Origin: Escherichia coli
GTDB taxonomy: Bacteria > Pseudomonadota > Gammaproteobacteria > Enterobacterales > Enterobacteriaceae
Assembly (NCBI RefSeq): GCF_011045215.1
Contig: NZ_CP049201.1
Length of the DNA stretch: 64,000 bases
Reading direction: 5' to 3' (one strand)
Shown: positions 4,208 to 60,488 of the stretch, piece after piece
Position numbering within the stretch: the first letter of the stretch is position 1
Layout of the letters: every line of letters begins with the position of its first letter
Translations under genes and position numbers: made by a program
Notes under the pieces: generated by a model
Database searches by the model: none
Told to the model about the DNA's origin: nothing
The model's input: the letters and a program-made list of their open reading frames with translations, nothing else

Positions 4208-4255
4208 AGCCCGGTCTTGTAGGCCTGATAAGACGCGTGAGCGTCGCATCAGGCA
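4208..4255. repeat. REP-like palindromic unit between cysI and cysH
   Basis: Imperfect palindrome gcctgataagacgcg...cgcgtcgcatcaggc typical of enterobacterial REP elements; coordinates approximate. Confidence 0.6.
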
Positions 4256-4275
4256 AGGCAAACAGTGAGGAATCT

Positions 4276-12328: not shown

Positions 12329-12956
12329 CCTTACATACCGGCCAGCTTTCGCCTGCGCAGTTGCTGCATCTGGTGGAGCGCGGGGAATATGTGATGCATC
12401 AGTGGCTGTGGGATCTCTTCCCTGGCGGCAAAGAAAGGCAATTTCTTTATCGTCGGGAAGAACTCCAGGGCGCGTTTCGCTTTTTTGTACTGTCGCAGGA
12501 ACGCCCGGCGGAAAGTGAAACGTTCACCATCGAATGCCGGTCATTTGTGCCCGAGCTGCGTACCGGACAACAACTTTGTTTCAACCTGCGGGCGAATCCA
12601 ACAATCTGTAAAGCGGGCAAGCGCCACGATCTGCTGATGGAGGCGAAACGGCAGGTGAGGGGGCAGGCGGAAGGAAGTGATGTCTGGTTGCATCAACAAC
12701 AGGCGGCGCTGGACTGGCTGGCAGCGCAGGGGGAGAGAAGCGGTTTTACACTGCTGGATACCTCGGTTGATGCCTACCGACAACAGCAACTGCGGCGGGA
12801 AAACTCCCGGCAACTGATCCAGTTCAGTAGCGTGGATTATACGGGGATGCTTACGGTCACCGATCCCGGGTTATTTCTGCAACGTCTCAGTCAGGGGTAT
12901 GGCAAAAGCCGCGCGTTCGGCTGTGGTCTGATGCTGATCAAACCCGGAGCAGAGGC

Positions 12957-12960: not shown

Positions 12961-14170
<1,210 letters not shown>

Positions 14171-14266
14171 GTTATGTGTTCTTTAAAAATAAGGAAATGT
14201 TTGAATTTAGTTGGTAGATTGTTGATGTGGAATAAATTTGTTTAAAAACAGATATGTATGCTTAGT
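14171..14266 (+). promoter_or_regulatory. CRISPR leader (AT-rich; array promoter and integration-proximal region)
   Basis: 96-bp AT-rich sequence between the cas2 stop and the first repeat. Confidence 0.8.
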
Positions 14267-14478
14267 GTGTTCCCCGCGCCAGCGGGGATAAACCGGTGCA
14301 TAAAAAATGATACCCCAGCGTTTCGTTGTGTTCCCCGCGCCAGCGGGGATAAACCGATTGAAATAGATCTCCCCGACATTAACGAACAGTGTTCCCCGCG
14401 CCAGCGGGGATAAACCGGGCGCACTGGATGCGATGATGGATATCACTTAGAATTCCCCGCCCCTGCGGTAGAACTCCC
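14267..14478 (+). CRISPR. Type I-E CRISPR array: 4 repeats (29 bp) and 3 spacers (32 bp)
   Basis: Repeat GTGTTCCCCGCGCCAGCGGGGATAAACCG at 14267-14295, 14328-14356 and 14389-14417; degenerate terminal repeat GAATTCCCCGCCCCTGCGGTAGAACTCCC at 14450-14478; spacers at 14296-14327, 14357-14388 and 14418-14449. Confidence 0.97.
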
Positions 14479-14498
14479 AGCTCCCATTTTCAAACCCA

Positions 14499-15536
14499 TC
14501 AAGACGCCTTCGCCAGCTCCTTCACCAGTGGTAGCATTATCCGCATAACATCACGGCAGCGACGTTCTATTCTTCCAGGAAGTGCCTTATCAATATGCTG
14601 TTGATTATCAAGCCTTACATCATGCCAGCTATTTCCCGCAGGGAATGCGGCTGTTTTTGCGCGTTGCTGATAACCATCTTTATTCCCAAGATTCCAGTTA
14701 GTCGCTTCCACCGAAAGTACAGCAATGCCCGCTTTGTCGAATATTTCTGCGTCATTACAACACCCAGTGCCTTTCGGATAATTTTTATTCAAACCCGGAT
14801 TGGTCGTTGCGGCTATTCCGTGACTGCGCGCAATTGCCAGCGCCCTGTCGCGCGTTAATTTCCTTACTGCTTCAGGGGTTTTTACACCGCTGTTGAAATA
14901 CAATTTATCGCCAACAATTAAGTTATCGAGATTAATCACCAGCAGCGTATTTTTCTTTTCGGTGTCACTCATCCGCTTGAGTAAATTCTCAGCGCCTAAT
15001 TTCCCTTCCTCTTCGCCGCTGGTCGCCACAAATCGAATACCATACTCGGTAGGCGTATTTTTCAGGCGTTCTGCCAATTCCAGCATGACACCTAAACCTG
15101 CGGCGTTATCATCCATTCCTTGTAACGTCAGCCCGCCGAGATTGGCATCGGCGTCAGCATCGCTCAGCGGGGCGTAAGTATCCAGATGCGCCATAATGAT
15201 GATCTGCTGCGGCGCTTTGCCTTCATGAGCGGCAATCACCGTACTTCCCGTCACGTTATGCCAGCTCTTGCGATTATCGCGGGCGGTATAAATATACCGA
15301 CTATTAAATGTCCGAATATCACTGCGATAACCCATTTGCTGAAACTGTTGGCGAATATAATCGGCAGATAACATTTCTGCAGGAGTTCCGGTCATGCGTC
15401 CCGGAAAGAAAGTAGCAATATGTCGTGCCTGGGTATTAGCAAAATCGCCAGGTTTAGGTGACGAGGCGTGTACGGGGAGAATAAAGCATACGCCGAGCGC
15501 CAGGGCAGCGGTACGGTGGCGCAATGCGGAAAACAT
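14499..15536 (-). CDS. iap: Alkaline phosphatase isozyme conversion aminopeptidase
   Basis: 345 aa with signal peptide; M28-family peptidase; conserved position next to the CRISPR array. Confidence 0.93.
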   Translation of the reverse strand: MFSALRHRTAALALGVCFILPVHASSPKPGDFANTQARHIATFFPGRMTGTPAEMLSADYIRQQFQQMGYRSDIRTFNSRYIYTARDNRKSWHNVTGSTVIAAHEGKAPQQIIIMAHLDTYAPLSDADADANLGGLTLQGMDDNAAGLGVMLELAERLKNTPTEYGIRFVATSGEEEGKLGAENLLKRMSDTEKKNTLLVINLDNLIVGDKLYFNSGVKTPEAVRKLTRDRALAIARSHGIAATTNPGLNKNYPKGTGCCNDAEIFDKAGIAVLSVEATNWNLGNKDGYQQRAKTAAFPAGNSWHDVRLDNQQHIDKALPGRIERRCRDVMRIMLPLVKELAKAS

Positions 15537-21862: not shown

Positions 21863-23224
<1,362 letters not shown>

Positions 23225-25725: not shown

Positions 25726-26133
25726 CTATGTGTTCATCATCTTGCGCACCAGCTGCACAAACAGCTCCTGCTCTTCTGCACTCAAACGCCCCAAAAATTC
25801 CTCATCCACGCTGTCACCAATCGGTATCGCCGCAGCAAGTATCTTTTCTCCTTCGGCAGTCAGCCAGACAAAGCGACGCCGCTTGTCAGCGGCATCATGT
25901 TCACGTCTGACTAAGCCACGATTCTCCATTCTTGCCAACATTTCTGCCAACGTTGCTTTGGTGCTGACTGCTGCTTCTATCAGTGCCACCTGTTCGATAC
26001 CAGGCTTATCAGCAATGGCGCGCATCACCGCATACTGTGGTTTGGTCAGGTCAGGTAACTCGTGCTGCCAGCGAGCCGTGTGCTGCTGAAAAAGCTGTCG
26101 TAACTGATGGAACGCTTTATTTCGTAACGCCAT
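25726..26133 (-). CDS. MarR/SlyA-family transcriptional regulator
   Basis: 135 aa winged-helix regulator; divergently oriented to the downstream decarboxylase operon. Confidence 0.85.
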   Translation of the reverse strand: MALRNKAFHQLRQLFQQHTARWQHELPDLTKPQYAVMRAIADKPGIEQVALIEAAVSTKATLAEMLARMENRGLVRREHDAADKRRRFVWLTAEGEKILAAAIPIGDSVDEEFLGRLSAEEQELFVQLVRKMMNT

Positions 26134-26279
26134 GTAAACTCCGGGCTAATTCTCTGTCGCTATCATAGCGGTTTTTTAGTGACGAAGAAGATGTTGTTAC
26201 TTTTCAATCCTTGCCGCTGTGGAAATGAAGGAGTATGTTAATAATAACGTTCGTATACGAACAATTAAGAGAATAAGCA

Positions 26280-26873
26280 ATGAAACTGATCGTCGGGATG
26301 ACAGGGGCTACCGGTGCGCCTCTTGGTGTGGCATTACTGCAAGCGCTGCGGGAGATGCCGAATGTCGAGACTCATCTGGTGATGTCGAAGTGGGCGAAAA
26401 CCACCATTGAACTGGAAACGCCTTACAGCGCTCGCGATGTTGCTGCCCTCGCAGACTTCTGCCATAACCCGGCGGATCAGGCGGCGACCATCTCCTCAGG
26501 TTCCTTTCGTACCGACGGCATGATCGTTATTCCGTGCAGTATGAAAACGCTCGCCGGTATCCGCGCTGGTTACGCCGATGGCTTGGTAGGGCGCGCGGCG
26601 GACGTCGTGCTCAAAGAAGGCCGCAAACTGGTGCTGGTGCCGCGTGAAATGCCGCTTAGCACCATCCATCTCGAAAATATGCTCGCACTTTCACGCATGG
26701 GCGTGGCGATGGTGCCGCCGATGCCTGCCTTTTATAACCATCCCGAAACGGTAGATGACATTGTCCACCATGTGGTAGCCCGCGTGCTGGATCAATTTGG
26801 CCTCGAACATCCCCACGCCAGGCGCTGGCAAGGATTGCCGCAGGCCCGGAATTTTTCTCAGGAGAATGAATAA
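26280..26873 (+). CDS. ecdB: UbiX-like flavin prenyltransferase (decarboxylase subunit B)
   Basis: 197 aa; UbiX/Pad1 family (MKLIVGMTGATGA...); first gene of a three-gene operon; symbol recalled from the O157-type locus naming, treat as tentative. Confidence 0.85.
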   Translation: MKLIVGMTGATGAPLGVALLQALREMPNVETHLVMSKWAKTTIELETPYSARDVAALADFCHNPADQAATISSGSFRTDGMIVIPCSMKTLAGIRAGYADGLVGRAADVVLKEGRKLVLVPREMPLSTIHLENMLALSRMGVAMVPPMPAFYNHPETVDDIVHHVVARVLDQFGLEHPHARRWQGLPQARNFSQENE

Positions 26874-28300
26874 TGGCATTTGATGATTTACGCAGCTTTT
26901 TACAGGCGCTTGATGACCACGGCCAGTTACTGAAAATCAGCGAAGAAATGAACGCTGAACCGGATCTGGCTGCCGCTGCCAACGCCACCGGGCGTATCGG
27001 CGATGGTGCACCGGCGCTGTGGTTTGATAATATTCGCGGCTTTACCGATGCCCGCGTGGCGATGAATACCATCGGTTCCTGGCAGAACCACGCGATTTCC
27101 CTGGGCCTGCCGCCAAACACCCCGGTTAAAAAACAGATTGATGAATTCATCCGCCGCTGGGATAACTTCCCGATTGTCCCGGAACGCCGCGCCAATCCTG
27201 CCTGGGCGCAGAACACCGTCGATGGCGACGAGATTAATTTGTTCGATATCCTGCCACTGTTTCGTTTAAACGATGGCGATGGCGGTTTCTATCTCGACAA
27301 AGCCTGCGTGGTTTCCCGCGATCCGCTCGACCCAGATAACTTCGGCAAGCAGAACGTCGGCATCTACCGCATGGAAGTGAAGGGCAAGCGTAAGCTCGGC
27401 CTGCAACCGGTGCCGATGCACGATATCGCCCTGCATCTGCATAAAGCAGAAGAGCGCGGTGAAGATCTGCCGATTGCGATCACGCTCGGTAACGATCCGA
27501 TCATCACGCTGATGGGGGCCACGCCGCTGAAATACGATCAGTCTGAGTATGAAATGGCAGGCGCGCTGCGTGAAAGCCCGTACCCGATCGCCACCGCCCC
27601 GCTGACCGGTTTTGATGTGCCGTGGGGTTCAGAAGTGATCCTCGAAGGGGTCATCGAAAGCCGTAAGCGCGAAATCGAAGGGCCGTTCGGTGAGTTTACC
27701 GGACACTACTCCGGCGGGCGTAACATGACCGTGGTGCGCATCGATAAAGTCTCTTACCGCACCAGGCCGATTTTCGAATCGCTGTACCTCGGCATGCCGT
27801 GGACCGAAATCGACTACCTGATGGGGCCAGCCACCTGCGTACCGCTATATCAACAACTGAAAGCCGAGTTCCCGGAAGTGCAGGCGGTAAACGCCATGTA
27901 CACCCACGGCCTGCTGGCGATTATCTCCACCAAAAAACGCTACGGCGGCTTTGCCCGCGCGGTGGGCCTGCGCGCGATGACCACGCCGCACGGTCTGGGC
28001 TACGTGAAGATGGTGATTATGGTCGATGAAGACGTTGATCCGTTCAACCTGCCGCAGGTGATGTGGGCGCTCTCCTCGAAAGTGAACCCGGCAGGGGATT
28101 TGGTGCAGTTGCCGAATATGTCCGTGCTGGAACTCGACCCAGGCTCAAGCCCGGCGGGGATCACCGACAAGCTGATTATCGACGCCACCACGCCTGTTGC
28201 CCCGGACAACCGTGGTCACTACAGCCAGCCGGTGGTGGATTTACCGGAAACCAAAGCCTGGGCTGAAAAACTGACCGCTATGCTGGCTGCACGTAAATAA
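26873..28300 (+). CDS. ecdC: UbiD-family reversible aromatic acid decarboxylase (subunit C)
   Basis: 475 aa; UbiD family; start overlaps the ecdB stop. Confidence 0.85.
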   Translation: MAFDDLRSFLQALDDHGQLLKISEEMNAEPDLAAAANATGRIGDGAPALWFDNIRGFTDARVAMNTIGSWQNHAISLGLPPNTPVKKQIDEFIRRWDNFPIVPERRANPAWAQNTVDGDEINLFDILPLFRLNDGDGGFYLDKACVVSRDPLDPDNFGKQNVGIYRMEVKGKRKLGLQPVPMHDIALHLHKAEERGEDLPIAITLGNDPIITLMGATPLKYDQSEYEMAGALRESPYPIATAPLTGFDVPWGSEVILEGVIESRKREIEGPFGEFTGHYSGGRNMTVVRIDKVSYRTRPIFESLYLGMPWTEIDYLMGPATCVPLYQQLKAEFPEVQAVNAMYTHGLLAIISTKKRYGGFARAVGLRAMTTPHGLGYVKMVIMVDEDVDPFNLPQVMWALSSKVNPAGDLVQLPNMSVLELDPGSSPAGITDKLIIDATTPVAPDNRGHYSQPVVDLPETKAWAEKLTAMLAARK

Positions 28301-28310
28301 GGAGAAGAAG

Positions 28311-28547
28311 ATGATTTGTCCACGTTGTGCCGATGAACAGATTGAAGTGATGGCGAAATCGCCGGTGAAAGATGTCTGGACGGTATATCAGTGCCAGCAT
28401 TGCCTTTATACCTGGCGCGATACCGAACCGCTACGCCGCACCAGCCGCGAACATTATCCCGAAGCGTTCCGCATGACGCAGAAAGATATTGATGACGCGC
28501 CAATGGTGCCGAGCATCCCGCCGCTGCTGGCGGAAGGTAAGCGCTAA
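28311..28547 (+). CDS. ecdD: Decarboxylase small subunit D (Cys-rich, zinc-ribbon-like)
   Basis: 78 aa with CPRC...CQHC motif; immediately after the UbiD gene. Confidence 0.75.
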   Translation: MICPRCADEQIEVMAKSPVKDVWTVYQCQHCLYTWRDTEPLRRTSREHYPEAFRMTQKDIDDAPMVPSIPPLLAEGKR

Positions 28548-28555
28548 TAAAAAGT

Positions 28556-28583
28556 GCCGGGTAGTGGCTTTGCTTTACCCGGC
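28556..28583. terminator. Hairpin terminator between convergent ecdD and pphB
   Basis: Perfect 8-bp stem GCCGGGTA/TACCCGGC with a 12-nt loop; U-run on the pphB (minus) side. Confidence 0.55.
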
Positions 28584-28587
28584 CTCA

Positions 28588-29243
28588 TTACTTTATTTTA
28601 TAAAATGACAGCCGCCCGCTGTTCGGCGATCCGGTATCAATATAAATCTGGTTAGCGAACGTCTGAATGTTATCAAACATCATATGTCCAAATATAAAAT
28701 AATCAGCGCCGTTTATTTGTTGTAACTCGCCATTAAGCGATTTCTGCACACGATCAACAGGCCAGAGTAATTCGCTCTCCGCTATTTCTTTACCAAAGAG
28801 ATATTCACTCCCCGGATAATCTGCATGTGCGATGACATATTTTATGTTGTCGTTAGTGATTTAATAATATGTGGAAGGTGATGGAATTTCAGCAACAGAT
28901 CTATTGCCTCTTGTTGCTCTGAATCATTTAAATCGAAAAACCAGTCACCACCGCTGGCAAGCCACATATTTCCATCGCCAGTTTCGAATGCCTCAAGGGC
29001 CATCGCTTCGTGGTTGCCTTTAGCCGATGTAAACCAGGACTGGTTTAACAGGCGCAGCACGTTAAGACTCTCCGGCCCACGATCGATGTTATCGCCTGTG
29101 GAAATAAGTAAGTCGGTTTCAGGGCAAAAAGAGAGTTGATGTAAACGGGATTGTAATAACTGATATTCACCATGAATATCACCAACGACCCATATATGGC
29201 GATAATGATGGGCATTGACTTTTTGATAGCGTGTAGATGGCAT
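28588..29243 (-). pseudogene. pphB: Serine/threonine protein phosphatase 2 (PphB), disrupted by a 1-bp frameshift
   Basis: N-terminal 133 aa (GDIHG, GDNIDRG motifs) ends at stop 28842; the C-terminal part continues in the -1 frame to a stop at 28588; frameshift near 28860. Confidence 0.8.
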
Positions 29244-29348
29244 GGTTTTACCCTGTAAAATAAGCTTTCCTATTATACAGGGTATTTTTATTTGATTCGT
29301 CAGCTGTAGATAATATTCCCGATAGTATTTTTCTACCGGGAATTATAA

Positions 29349-31910
29349 TTACACCAGACTCTTCAAGCGATAAATCCACTCCAGCGCCTGACGCGGGGTG
29401 AGTGAATCCGGATCGAGGTTTTCCAGTGCCTCGACCGCAGGCGAAGTTTCTTCCGGTACTGACAGCAAAGACATTTGCGTACCATCCACTTGCGTAGCGG
29501 CGGCGTTCGGCGAAATGCTTTCCAGCTCACGCAGTTTTTGCCGTGCGCGCTTAATAACCTCTTTTGGCACGCCGGCCAGAGCTGCAACCGCCAGGCCGTA
29601 GCTTTTGCTCGCCGCGCCATCCTGCACGCTATGCATAAAGGCAATGGTGTCGCCGTGCTCCAGTGCATCGAGATGCACGTTGGCGACGCCTTCCATTTTC
29701 TCCGGTAACTGGGTCAGCTCAAAATAGTGGGTAGCAAACAGCGTCAATGCCTTAATCTTATTCGCCAGATTTTCCGCGCACGCCCATGCCAGTGACAGAC
29801 CATCGTAAGTGGACGTTCCACGCCCGATCTCATCCATTAACACCAGACTGTATTCGGTGGCGTTATGTAAAATATTGGCGGTTTCAGTCATCTCCACCAT
29901 AAAGGTTGAGCGCCCGGAAGCCAGGTCATCTGCCGCGCCTACGCGGGTAAAGATACGGTCAATCGGTCCAATCTCGACTTTTTGTGCCGGTACATAGCTG
30001 CCGATGTAGGCCATCAGCGCAATCAGTGCGGTCTGGCGCATATAGGTACTTTTACCACCCATGTTCGGACCGGTGATGATCAACATGCGGCGCTGCGGCG
30101 ACAGATTCAGCGGGTTAGCGATAAATGGCTCATTCAGTACTTGTTCAACTACCGGATGGCGACCTTCGGTAATGCGAATGCCCGGTTTATCAATAAAGGT
30201 CGGGCAGGTGTAATTCAGGGTATAGGCCCGTTCCGCCAGGTTCACCAGCACGTCGAGTTCCGCCAGCGCGCTCGCGCTCTGTTGCAACGCTTCCAGATGC
30301 GGCAACAGCAGGTCGAACAACTCTTCATAAAGCTGTTTTTCCAGTGCCAGTGCTTTGCCTTTTGAGGTGAGAACTTTATCTTCGTACTCTTTTAGCTCTG
30401 GAATGATGTAGCGCTCGGCGTTTTTCAGCGTCTGGCGACGCATGTAGTTGATGGGTGCCAGATGGCTTTGCCCACGGCTGATTTGAATGTAGTAGCCGTG
30501 CACCGCATTAAAGCCAACTTTCAGCGTGTCCAGGCCGGTACGTTCACGCTCGCGGACTTCCAGACGCTCCAGATAATCGGTCGCGCCGTCAGCCAGCGCG
30601 CGCCACTCATCCAGCTCTTCGTTATAGCCCGATGCGATAACACCACCGTCGCGTACCAGCACCGGCGGTGCGTCGATGATTGCTCGCTCCAGCAGATCGC
30701 GCAGCTCGGCAAACTCGCCCATCTTCTCACGTAGCGCCTGTACCGGTGCACTATCAACAGGTTCTAACTGCGCACGCAGCTCCGGCAGTTGCTGGAAAGC
30801 GTGACGCATACGGGCCAGATCGCGTGGGCGAGCGGTACGCAACGCCAGACGCGCCAGAATACGTTCCAGGTCGCCAACCTGACGTAGTACCGGCTGTAGC
30901 CCGGCGGTGAAATCCTGCAATGCGCCAATAGTTTGCTGGCGCTCAAGCAACACGCGGGTATCGCGCACTGGCATATGCAGCCAGCGTTTCAGCATACGGC
31001 TGCCCATCGGCGTGACGGTGCAGTCGAGTACAGAAGCCAGCGTGTTTTCCGCACTGCCCGCCAGGTTCTGGGTAATTTCCAGGTTACGACGCGTCGCGGC
31101 ATCCATAATGATGCTGTCCTGCTCACGTTCCATGGTGATGGAACGAATATGCGGCAGAGTCGTACGTTGGGTATCTTTCGCATACTGCAACAGACAACCG
31201 GCAGCACAAAGTCCGCGCGGCGCGTTCTCGACGCCAAAACCGACCAGATCGCGAGTGCCAAATTGTAGATTCAACTGCTGGCGCGCGGTGTCGATTTCAA
31301 ACTCCCACAGCGGGCGACGGCGCAGGCCGCGACGGCCTTCAATTAACGACATTTCAGCAAAATCTTCTGCATACAGCAGTTCCGCAGGATTAGTGCGTTG
31401 CAGTTCTGCCGCCATCGTTTCCCGGTCAGCCGGTTCGCTCAGGCGAAAACGACCGGAACTGATATCCAGCGTCGCGTAGCCGAAACCTTTGCTGTCCTGC
31501 CAGATAGCCGCCAGCAGGTTGTCCTGACGCTCCTGCAACAGGGCTTCATCGCTGATGGTGCCTGGCGTAACGATACGCACAACTTTGCGCTCAACCGGAC
31601 CTTTGCTGGTCGCCGGATCGCCAATTTGTTCGCAGATGGCAACGGACTCGCCCTGATTCACCAGTTTGGCGAGGTAGTTTTCCACCGCATGGTAGGGAAT
31701 CCCCGCCATCGGGATCGGCTCTCCCGCCGAAGCACCGCGTTTGGTCAGTGAAATATCCAGCAGTTGCGATGCGCGTTTTGCGTCGTCATAAAACAGTTCA
31801 TAAAAATCACCCATCCGGTAAAACAGCAGGATCTCGGGATGCTGGGCTTTCAGCTTGAGATACTGCTGCATCATGGGCGTATGGGCGTCGAAATTTTCTA
31901 TTGCACTCAT
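29349..31910 (-). CDS. mutS: DNA mismatch repair protein MutS
   Basis: 853 aa; Walker [10 protein letters not shown]. Confidence 0.98.
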
Positions 31911-32196: not shown

Positions 32197-32550
32197 ATGT
32201 CCGGCAAGCGTATCTCTCGTGAAAAACTGACGATTAAAAAAATGATCGATCTTTATCAAGCGAAATGCCCGCAGGCGTCAGCGGAGCCGGAGCATTACGA
32301 CGCGCTGTTTGCCTACGCGCAAAAGCGGCTGGATAAATGTGTGTTCGGCGAAGAGAAACCAGCCTGTAAGCAGTGTCCGGTGCACTGTTACCAGCCTGCA
32401 AAGCGTGAAGAGATGAAACAGATTATGCGTTGGGCCGGGCCGAGAATGCTGTGGCGTCATCCGATCTTAACCGTGCGTCATCTCATCGATGACAAGCGTC
32501 CGGTGCCAGAACTGCCGGAAAAATATCGTCCGAAAAAACCTCGTGAATAG
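32197..32550 (+). CDS. ygbA: Uncharacterised Cys-rich protein YgbA
   Basis: 117 aa; conserved position between mutS and fhlA. Confidence 0.85.
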   Translation: MSGKRISREKLTIKKMIDLYQAKCPQASAEPEHYDALFAYAQKRLDKCVFGEEKPACKQCPVHCYQPAKREEMKQIMRWAGPRMLWRHPILTVRHLIDDKRPVPELPEKYRPKKPRE

Positions 32551-32586
32551 TATGCCGGACAGGCAGATCTGTCCGGCAATTTGCAG

Positions 32587-34665
32587 TTAAATCAATGCCG
32601 ATTTATCAATTCCCAGCCGCTTCATCCGTGACAGCAGGGTCGTGCGTTTCAGCCCCAGACGTTGCGCAGCGCCTTTAGGCCCGGCAACCACGCCGTTAGT
32701 TTCTTTCAGCACGCGAACAATCAACTGATATTCATCTTCGCCCTCCTGAGCGACAACCGTTGCGGCAGGCGGCGTTTCAGGCTCCGGTAAAGCAATATCT
32801 GGCAATGACAGCTGCAGCACGTTGCCGCGTGTTAGCAATACCGCGCGCTCAATGACGTTTTCCAGTTCGCGTACGTTACCCGGCCACTCCATATTGCTCA
32901 AGGTGCGCAACGTCTCGGCAGGAATGCTGTCGATATTGCGCCCCAGACGACGGGCAATTTTGAAGGTAAAGGCTTTCGCCAGCAGCGGAATATCTTCCGG
33001 ACGCTCGCGTAGTGGCGGAAGGTGAATCGGGAATACGTTCAGGCGGTAATAGAGATCGCTACGGAACTCACGGTCGGCGACCATTTTTTTCAGATCGCGG
33101 TTAGTCGCGGCGATTAGACGCACGTCCGTCTGAATGATTTTGTTGCTGCCGAGGCGTTCAAACTCCTGTTCCTGCAATACACGCAGCAACTTCGGCTGTA
33201 ACTCCAGTGGCATATCGCCCACTTCGTCGAGGAACAGGGAGCTTTTATCCGCCAGTTCAAAACGACCGATACGCTGGGCGCTGGCACCGGTAAAAGCCCC
33301 ACGCTCATGACCAAACAGATCGCTCTCCAGCAATCCGGCAGGCATCGCCGCGCAATTCATTTTGACCATGCGGCGATTATTACGTCCACTGAGATTATGG
33401 ATAGCACGGGCAATCAGCTCTTTACCCGTGCCAGTTTCACCGAGGATCAGCACGGTACTGTCACTTTGCGCCACCATTTCAACTTGTTTAAGCACGCTGT
33501 ACATGGCTTCGCTGCGGCCAATAATCTCGCCAAATTCACTATCAACATTGTTGAGCTGCTCGGTCAGGGCGAGGTTTTCATCAACCAGCCGTTCTTTCAG
33601 ACGATGGATTTCCTGATAGGCGAGGGCGTTATCGACAGCGATTGCCACACGTTCGGCAATCTGGCGCAGTAAATTCAGATTGGTAGTGGTAAACACTTTC
33701 TCTTCACATTGCGCCAGTTTCAGCACGCCCAGCATGGTGTCGCCAGACATCAGCGGTAACAGGCACAAGGTTTGAATCTGGTTGCCCCAGGTATCGAACA
33801 ACATGCGTTCATAGGGGGCTAAATCATCCCGCTCGTGGAGATTAATCAGCAGCATCTCTTTACTTTTGAACACGCGTTCGGTGAGGGTTCCGGCTTCATC
33901 GACTTCGCTCTGTTCGTGGGCGGGATGCTGTTTATCAAGATAGTGAGTGGAGTAGATGTTGAGTTTGTTTTTACGGTGGCTGCGTAAGACGATACTGATA
34001 TCGTCAATATCGAAATAGTAATGGATTTCTTTGGCGACTTCGCTGACCAGTTCGTCCATATCCAGGCGGGAAAGCACCGCGTTGGTGATGGCGACCAGGA
34101 TGCGGAAGTTATCGCGTTCCCGGCATAACAACTCATAGTCGACATTGTTAACGACGCGACTCTGGATTTGTTCGGTGACGACAGAAACGATCTGCGTAAA
34201 TGTTTGCAGACGATTGAACTCTTTTTCGCTCCAGGGGCGATCGTCATAACGAATAAATTCACAGCCACCAAAAATATGCCCTTCCGCCGCCAGTGGCATC
34301 AGGCAATAGTGACCAAATTTTGGGTATAGCCCACCTGCGGCCAGCTGCGGCCAGGTTTCACAAAATTCTTCGTAACTGCAATGCAGCGTATCAGGGCGCG
34401 ACAAAATGCTGCGTACCGGACCGTGTGCCAGAACAGTTTCGTCTTCATATTTAATGGGGGTGTCTTTTTCACGCGATGCGTAATAAGACGCACGTTGAGT
34501 CTGCGCTTGCCACAACACAATAGCCGCGTTGTCGGCGAGCGCAGAACGCTTTACCAGTTGCGAAAGAGCCTCACACAGCGAGGCCAGATCGGGCTGCTGC
34601 AATAGTGTCCGAGTGATGTCGAACAACCCTTGCTGTCCGAGATCACTCATCGGTGTATATGACAT
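32587..34665 (-). CDS. fhlA: Formate hydrogenlyase transcriptional activator FhlA (sigma54-dependent)
   Basis: ORF trimmed to MSYTPMSDLG (692 aa); GAF domains, AAA+ sigma54-interaction domain ([14 protein letters not shown]) and C-terminal HTH. Confidence 0.96.
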   Translation of the reverse strand: MSYTPMSDLGQQGLFDITRTLLQQPDLASLCEALSQLVKRSALADNAAIVLWQAQTQRASYYASREKDTPIKYEDETVLAHGPVRSILSRPDTLHCSYEEFCETWPQLAAGGLYPKFGHYCLMPLAAEGHIFGGCEFIRYDDRPWSEKEFNRLQTFTQIVSVVTEQIQSRVVNNVDYELLCRERDNFRILVAITNAVLSRLDMDELVSEVAKEIHYYFDIDDISIVLRSHRKNKLNIYSTHYLDKQHPAHEQSEVDEAGTLTERVFKSKEMLLINLHERDDLAPYERMLFDTWGNQIQTLCLLPLMSGDTMLGVLKLAQCEEKVFTTTNLNLLRQIAERVAIAVDNALAYQEIHRLKERLVDENLALTEQLNNVDSEFGEIIGRSEAMYSVLKQVEMVAQSDSTVLILGETGTGKELIARAIHNLSGRNNRRMVKMNCAAMPAGLLESDLFGHERGAFTGASAQRIGRFELADKSSLFLDEVGDMPLELQPKLLRVLQEQEFERLGSNKIIQTDVRLIAATNRDLKKMVADREFRSDLYYRLNVFPIHLPPLRERPEDIPLLAKAFTFKIARRLGRNIDSIPAETLRTLSNMEWPGNVRELENVIERAVLLTRGNVLQLSLPDIALPEPETPPAATVVAQEGEDEYQLIVRVLKETNGVVAGPKGAAQRLGLKRTTLLSRMKRLGIDKSALI

Positions 34666-34738
34666 TTTGTTCTTCCAGGAAAGCACCGCAAAGCGGTGCA
34701 AAAGGTCATTGACTAACTATAGGAGATTTAGAATTTTA

Positions 34739-46430: not shown

Positions 46431-46500
46431 TTTTTCAATAAGGAATCAGGACAGGGATGTTCTTGATGGGGTGAACCAGCTCTGATGCCAAATGCTAAAT

Positions 46501-46582
46501 TGCCCGATGCGCTGCGCTTATCGGGCTTTCCTGGTTCGTGCGACATGTAGGCCGGATAAGGCGTTCACGCCGCATCCGGCAC
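46501..46582. repeat. REP/BIME elements between hycI and ascB
   Basis: Two REP-like palindromes (tgcccgatgcgctgcgcttatcgggc; gtaggccggataaggcgttcacgccgcatccggcac). Confidence 0.7.
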
Positions 46583-53830: not shown

Positions 53831-53853
53831 AGCGTGTTGCATTTGGACACCCT

Positions 53854-53939
53854 TGCCGGATGCGGCGTAAATGCCTTATCCGGCTTACATATGCGCTCCC
53901 CGTAGGTCGGATAAGACGCGCCAGCGTCGCATCCGACAT
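53854..53939. repeat. REP/BIME elements between hypF and norW
   Basis: REP-like palindromes (tgccggatgcggcgtaaatgccttatccggc; gtaggtcggataagacgcgccagcgtcgcatccgac). Confidence 0.7.
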
Positions 53940-60383: not shown

Positions 60384-60488
60384 AACTTTTCCTTAATGTA
60401 GTGGCGGAAGTCCTGTATGCCTGATGAGCGTAGCGCATCAGGCATTCTATTAGTCTCACGGAGATCCTTAACGGATCTCCGCTGTTGA

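Follow-up and report, generated by a model that had tools for sequence, protein, structure and literature searches.

A REP in the course of leaving its repeat family is likely to be what stands between ecdD and pphB in Escherichia coli of the O157:H7 type, where it is the sole non-coding element: a diverged, solitary, fossil REP of the enterobacterial GTAG type, placed directly after ecdD and probably serving both of the transcripts that converge on it, with Rho-independent termination on the minus strand and 3'-end protection on the plus strand. The window in which it was studied is a stretch of 64,000 nucleotides of an E. coli genome, and all coordinates given without a locus name are those of the window. 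Judged by its sequence features, the element would probably terminate mutS-pphB transcription and cap the ecdBCD message. It makes a small, clean example of a REP departing from its family while keeping, and perhaps gaining, the features of a terminator; Dar and Sorek 2018 (PMC6061677) predicted such a switch between protective stem-loops and intrinsic terminators. The evolutionary picture is corrected as well: ecdBCD next to mutS is widespread in Enterobacteriaceae, pphB and ygbI-N belong to particular lineages, and the much-studied mutS-rpoS mosaic has one of its boundaries exactly on the REP. Beyond annotation the finding matters little. This is ordinary biology, a degenerate addition to an already known kind, REPs between convergent genes being commonplace.

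Structure of the spacer and its flanking genes

The perfect, GC-rich stem of 8 bp that the first-pass annotation had described between the stop codons of ecdD and pphB lies at exactly the coordinates then given (Table 1), and six of its pairs are G-C and two A-T. It occupies a convergent spacer of 40 bp, counted from the ecdD stop to the ancestral pphB stop, and it begins 8 nt past the former and ends 4 nt short of the latter, the tetranucleotide CTCA making up the whole of that second gap. The folding energy of the core is -16.6 kcal/mol for the plus strand and -13.9 kcal/mol for the minus strand, and so the stability on which the earlier reading had staked itself is there on both. In a context of 53 nt the corresponding values are -18.4 kcal/mol (z -3.0) and -19.6 kcal/mol (z -2.9) against dinucleotide shuffles. 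On the plus strand an inner helix of 3 bp and G.U pairs lengthen the stem to about 12 pairs: numbering nucleotides by their last two digits, G64 pairs with U75, U65 is bulged, and 28566-28568 form the inner helix with 28572-28574. The inner helix of the minus strand has only 2 bp.

Table 1. Coordinates in the window of the hairpin, its flanking genes and the canonical REPs
Feature	Position	Strand	Description
ecdD	28311-28547	+	78-aa subunit D of non-oxidative hydroxyarylic acid decarboxylase; from the ORF and RefSeq annotation of relatives
A-rich spacer	28548-28555		TAAAAAGT; opens with a second in-frame TAA; minus strand reads ACUUUUUA
Stem, 5' arm	28556-28563		GCCGGGTA
Loop	28564-28575		12 nt, GTGGCTTTGCTT
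Stem, 3' arm	28576-28583		TACCCGGC, exact reverse complement of GCCGGGTA
CTCA	28584-28587		degenerate remnant of the REP CTAC tail (GTAG tag on the minus strand)
pphB	28588-29243	-	serine/threonine phosphatase gene, pseudogene here; from split ORFs and alignment to intact pphB
Canonical REPs	4219-4256; 46500-46530; 46547-46582; 53853-53888; 53902-53939; 60415-60445		24.9-32.3 bits

Stems of such a kind are not rare by chance. When a perfect stem of 8 bp containing 6 or more G-C pairs and closing a loop of 3-12 nt was sought in the 64-kb window there were 7 matches (4 hairpins) as against 3.85 +/- 2.4 in dinucleotide shuffles, so that it is placement, flanks and conservation that speak for a real feature. 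In these it exceeds chance, by its position in a convergent spacer of 40 bp, the adjoining U5 run and the conservation of pairing. A scan of 26000-30000 with Rfam at E <= 10 returned chance-level matches only, none of them at the hairpin.

Of the two genes, whose identities are backed by RefSeq annotation of E. coli loci 98-99% identical, ecdD is the last of ecdBCD and has its stop codon, TAA, at 28545-28547. The ancestral stop of pphB is the minus-strand TAA at 28588-28590. The first-pass annotation missed that a frameshift has made pphB a pseudogene here: a G has been lost between 28862 and 28863 (ATTATT-AAATC versus ATTATTGAAATC), in consequence of which translation ends at 28842-28844 with a truncated product of 133 aa, and 28588 marks an ancestral and not a working stop. 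The deletion occurs in none of the 5,157 matching complete E. coli genomes, the best match being 99.2% over a stretch of 121 nt, and it could be strain-specific decay (e.g. in a Shigella-like lineage) or a sequencing error. Since 250 nt are left untranslated before the hairpin, Rho may halt minus-strand transcription ahead of it.

The pairing has been conserved. In an alignment of 20 taxa, 97% of cells pair in the plus-strand structure versus 30-57% in slid controls, and there are two compensatory pair changes, G-C to A-U and U-A to C-G. For the minus-strand RNA the share of paired cells is 84%, with 34 plus-strand G.U cells becoming A.C, as against 4 G.U cells on the minus strand itself. This strand asymmetry was considered as a sign of selection on the ecdD RNA and was set aside, canonical REPs having the same asymmetry built in. 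Among Escherichia lineages with flanks diverged by ~10-15%, variation affects only 3 of 16 columns in the stem, two of which retain a G.U pair, compared with 7 of 12 in the loop and 4 of 4 in the tail.

Predicted transcript ends on the two strands

Parameters and cut-offs of the TransTermHP type, including a tail cut-off of -2.5, were taken as restated in PMC12306157. Terminator prediction on both strands had been proposed as the check on a single hairpin that ends both genes, and its outcome is divided. The built-in terminator scan accepts loops of up to 8 nt and so passed over this hairpin; scored with the TransTermHP-type parameters the stem-loop itself, at -5.6, is past the cut-off, and the minus strand alone passes in full. 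There the tail ACUUUUUAUUA, whose U tract 3' of the hairpin in the pphB/mutS sense is the minus-strand reading of 28548-28555, scores -2.78 right after the stem and -5.08 with an offset of 2 nt, a value reached at 0.04% of window positions. The plus-strand tail CUCAUUACUUUAUUU scores -2.37, which is above the cut-off and so fails, and is equalled at 22% of positions; the T-rich run on the ecdD side is made of the final codons of pphB (F-Y-K-I-K-stop). A stable G+C-rich stem-loop is thus accompanied by a qualifying U tract on the minus strand and by none on the plus strand. Describing a U-run on the pphB side with a weaker T-rich tract on the ecdD side was accurate, while the claim that one hairpin ends both genes holds, by sequence criteria, for pphB/mutS and is weak for ecdD. 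All the Escherichia-clade sequences examined retain the A5-6 run beside ecdD that templates the minus-strand U5-6; Pseudocitrobacter and some Citrobacter have a weaker run or none.

These criteria support the hairpin as a putative intrinsic terminator for the pphB/mutS strand, and the case for a terminator on the ecdD strand is weak, a protective 3'-end stem-loop or a weak terminator being the more likely there. Counting against efficient intrinsic termination is the loop of 12 nt, which is long, especially on the minus strand with its inner helix of 2 bp. Known systems resemble the element in different respects. With bidirectional Rho-independent terminators it shares one G+C-rich hairpin in a short convergent spacer, flanked by an A run and a T-rich run; unlike them it has a qualifying U tract on the minus strand only, and its loop of 12 nt differs from the 4-nt loop, with symmetric tails, of the ecdD/ygbN terminator described below. 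Like the protective 3' stem-loops of Rho-dependent transcripts (PMC6061677), the ecdD-strand stem-loop lies just past a stop codon and lacks a U-rich tract, the connection with Rho being drawn here by analogy. A stem-loop without a U tract is the signature of ends trimmed by exonuclease back to a hairpin after termination further downstream, whether by Rho or otherwise (PMC6061677).

Recent REP work provides a close parallel. Convergent genes flank about 60% of E. coli REPs, and ~40% of the REPs so placed fall inside mapped bidirectional terminators; a set of 306 mapped bidirectional terminators contains 78 REPs, and REP325 combines partial, partly Rho-dependent termination with a stabilising role (bioRxiv 10.64898/2026.03.23.713779). 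The dual behaviour that we would ascribe to the window hairpin matches this by analogy.

Probable descent from a REP

Does a hairpin present once per genome qualify as a REP at all? GTAG-type REPs, or BIME units (the 'GTAG-3' family; Y-like), are imperfect palindromes of ~34 nt that combine an outer stem of 7 bp and a short inner stem with an internal G.T/TT asymmetry and lie outside genes, where convergent genes end, and the window hairpin resembles them in all of this. It lies between two stop codons; its G64.T75 wobble, T65 bulge and inner helix supply the internal mismatch and bulge, in a layout that matches the inner-stem and TT-asymmetry columns of canonical REPs; and its position holds canonical REPs in sister genera. 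It differs from REPs in that the GTAG has decayed to TGAG on its own strand, an A-T pair stands in place of one G.T and makes the stem of 8 bp 'perfect', and REPs are high-copy whereas the 45-nt hairpin region is found once per genome in 827 E. coli genomes (median 1 place, maximum 2) and once in the window. The GTAG tetranucleotide at the foot of the hairpin is required for TnpA-REP binding and cleavage (PMC3479197). In other Escherichia clades the tag position reads CACG, CTTG, TACG, CATA or CACA, and the high-scoring copies L007, L024, L031 and L035 retain CTAC, i.e. an intact GTAG.

The subtype to which the hairpin belongs is GCCGGGT...ACCCGGC, which differs from the Y and Z types usual in E. 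coli (GCCGGATG.../GCCTGATG...). Set against the REP variant TTGCCGGGTGGCGGCTTCGCCTTACCCGGCCTAC, which Kosakonia and Enterobacter carry elsewhere and in other orientations, the window's GTGCCGGGTAGTGGCTTTGCTTTACCCGGCCTCA aligns without gaps and is identical at 27 of 34 positions. The subtype is a dispersed repeat: an exact-pattern scan of metagenome contigs gave at least 120 stretches, with, among the matches listed, at least 13 exact copies on a single contig of 1.37 Mb and 5-6 on contigs of 150-250 kb.

A covariance model was built from 19 REPs of other species, with E. coli and the slot directly after ecdD excluded. Against it the hairpin is found at 28554-28586 on the plus strand with 14.8 bits, E = 0.22 for the whole window and rank 8, after the six canonical REPs that the model recovers in the window at 24.9-32.3 bits and a weaker match of 16.6 bits at 32550-32579, noise beginning at ~11 bits. 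A non-REP bidirectional terminator hairpin at the equivalent site of another E. coli architecture scores 11.9 bits, and because this is close to 14.8 the REP assignment rests mainly on the orthologous series. Alignable versions of the hairpin directly follow the ecdD stop in Escherichia clades, Pseudocitrobacter, several Citrobacter and Lelliottia, and a canonical REP follows ecdD in Klebsiella indica and C. amalonaticus (e.g. GCCGGATGGCGGCTAACGCCTTATCCGGCCTAC). In this slot Pseudocitrobacter vendiensis, with the same ecdD/pphB flanks, scores 49.5 bits; copies from Klebsiella, Lelliottia, Pseudocitrobacter and Citrobacter score 43.7, 35.6, 32.9, 32.1, 28.9, 28.8, 26.6 and 21.1 bits, and Escherichia clades 13.5-17 bits. 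We read the series, descending from 49.5 to 13.5 bits, as one REP decaying in place, its descent being supported by the comparison of orthologous sequences. On this reading the hairpin is a decayed REP and not a purpose-built terminator, a point that escaped the first-pass annotation.

The junction within and beyond E. coli

A query of 701 bp across the junction matched 5,401 of 5,426 complete E. coli genomes, in which three architectures are found. In (A), with 806 genomes, ecdD, hairpin and pphB are contiguous as in the window. In (B) ecdBCD is followed by ygbN...ygbI and then by pphB, and the match to the window ends at ~28554-28559. In (C), which is K-12-like and without ecd, the match begins within the stop codon of pphB, at 28589; this codon reads TAG in the K-12-like genomes and TAA in the architecture of the window. 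The end of the match in (B) and its start in (C) together define 28556-28588, 33 bp comprising the hairpin and its 3' tail, as the exact segment by which (A) is set apart. In 494 of the 827 genomes that have the 45-nt hairpin region it is at least 99% identical, and it is 100% identical in the first 18 of the 827 matches listed, O157:H7 and O145:H28 strains among them.

Other hairpins stand at the corresponding junctions. The ecdD/ygbN spacer of (B) holds a bidirectional terminator, AAAAGGTCCGATGcccCATCGGACCTTTTT, with a loop of 4 nt and tails of -5.09 and -4.88 (12353-12380 in locus L001, ~1855-1876 in L006), which is much stronger than the window hairpin. A further, different hairpin stands between ygbI and pphB in (B) and (C); in its K-12-like form, CTCATGCTTCacagaaGAAGCATGAG (L002, 2972-2997), the U tracts of both strands are poor (-2.13 and -2.29). 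An origin of the window spacer from the K-12 ygbI-pphB hairpin (CTCATGCTTC...GAAGCATGAG) by loss of 23 nt, which would leave CTCAT|TACTTT, was tried and rejected: the match extends over only 5 nt, REPs occupy the site in outgroups without ygb genes, and at the K-12 junction the REP model gives no match.

The hairpin had been said to mark the boundary between a variable island and a conserved pphB-mutS block. The breakpoints at 28554-28559 and 28589 fit such a boundary, while the opposition of variable to conserved is true only within E. coli. When loci were fetched with EcdD, one per species from 80 Enterobacteriaceae, mutS converged on ecdD within 3 kb in 58, so that ecdBCD beside mutS is a widespread state of the family and not an exotic island; the distance is within 250 nt in 33 of the 80, and pphB intervenes in 7 and ygbN in 1. 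It is pphB and ygbI-N that are the lineage-specific pieces of the region. An additional gene, annotated as a tetratricopeptide repeat protein, lies between pphB and mutS in a divergent Escherichia lineage (L005, 2571-3434), and an extra gene is suggested in L016 and L021 solely by the greater distance of mutS from ecdD than in other pphB-bearing loci; such a gene would add to the variable pieces.

The mosaic character of the mutS-rpoS region is well known (PMC4209514). In other E. coli a 6.1-kb ygbN-ygbI module with end hairpins of its own stands in place of exactly the 33-bp unit 28556-28588, and one could imagine the REP as the physical swap point of the mosaic, with cassette exchange driven by REP-directed recombination or REP-targeted insertion. 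REP-driven exchange would then be what made the region the classic polymorphic hot spot, though we hold this decidedly unlikely.

Interpretation and alternatives

The history that we favour would begin with a REP of the subtype GCCGGGT...ACCCGGCCTAC, in place at the 3' end of ecdD already before the separation of Escherichia from Citrobacter and Pseudocitrobacter. The Escherichia copy appears to have lost the GTAG tag and its identity with the copy family, and is presumably no longer a substrate of the REP transposase; it would have kept its stem, which adjoins the A5-6 run. In the mutS-pphB sense the stem followed by ACUUUUUAUUA would act as a Rho-independent terminator. In the ecdBCD sense the more stable hairpin, without a proper U tract, would mainly define the mRNA 3' end and shield it from 3'-to-5' exonucleases; termination of ecdBCD at the hairpin is likely to be at most partial, the remainder being expected from Rho or from collision inside the antisense pphB. 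While structure, conservation, REP ancestry, U-tract asymmetry and breakpoints are matters of observation, the two roles, termination and stabilisation, are deduced only from sequence.

The view of the first-pass annotation, that a single hairpin terminates both genes, corresponds to a purpose-built bidirectional Rho-independent terminator, without REP ancestry, that stops polymerase arriving from either side. On the minus strand that explanation overlaps functionally with a REP turned terminator, and it draws on the stability of the hairpin on both strands, the A5 run upstream and T-rich run downstream, a minus-strand tail that passes the cut-off, and the textbook bidirectional terminator at the same place in the ecdD/ygbN spacer of sister E. 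coli (-5.09 and -4.88). It is nonetheless unlikely, given a plus-strand tail that fails at -2.37 and is no better than that of 22% of positions, and a T-rich run on the ecdD side that is simply the end of the pphB coding sequence; an origin independent of REPs has further to contend with the graded series from canonical REPs at the same position and the gapless match, 27 of 34, to a dispersed subtype.

REPs <16 nt from a stop codon are reported to depress translation (Liang, Rudd and Deutscher 2015, as cited in PMC12306157), and with 8 nt separating it from the ecdD stop and 4 nt from that of pphB the hairpin is close enough. Lying within 15 nt of both stops it might stall terminating ribosomes, with cleavage of the mRNA, tmRNA tagging and a lowered output of EcdD and, formerly, of PphB. 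The short spacing may, however, just reflect the compactness of a 40-bp spacer, and pphB in this window is not translated to its end; such a translational damper seems to us very unlikely. That the hairpin is a dead REP without present function, kept because little time has elapsed or through a history as a recombination joint at the DNA level, would accord with its single copy and lost tag, with the expectation of about four perfect 8-bp stems of the kind per 64 kb by chance, and with the exact coincidence of the REP unit and the segment exchanged for ygbN-ygbI. Yet neutrality leaves poorly explained why 3 of 16 stem columns vary, two keeping G.U, against 7 of 12 in the loop and all 4 in the tail, and why the adjoining A5-6 run has also been kept, and we regard it as extremely improbable.

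Other repeats and loci

Two pairs of the canonical REPs of the window are inverted, in a BIME-like arrangement (46500-46530 with 46547-46582, and 53853-53888 with 53902-53939). A second degenerate REP-like hairpin, UUGCCGGACAGAUCUGCCUGUCCGGCAUAC, lies at 32550-32579 on the minus strand (16.6 bits, rank 7) and has a perfect stem of 8-10 bp at 32553-32578; it is just downstream of an ORF of 704 aa at 32587-34701, the formate hydrogenlyase activator gene, and is also present in L001 at 22400-22429. At 13500-15000, a possible site of a CRISPR array, tandem repeats were sought and none found.

The ecdD-mutS spacer is a hot spot for REPs in several genera. Enterobacter loci have an inverted REP pair there, and downstream of ecdD in Citrobacter koseri (L050, 1971-2446) are seven REPs of the same orientation, spaced by ~74 nt and followed by one that is inverted. 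A contig of 1.2 kb from a metagenome-assembled genome labelled 'Collinsella sp.' (L008) carries an ecdD of E. coli type (99%) together with the terminator of the ygbN side; the contig is probably contamination from binning. In Pseudocitrobacter vendiensis (L007) EcdD is 100% identical in amino acid sequence to that of the window, and the order ecdD, pphB, mutS is the same, which together suggest recent exchange with Escherichia.
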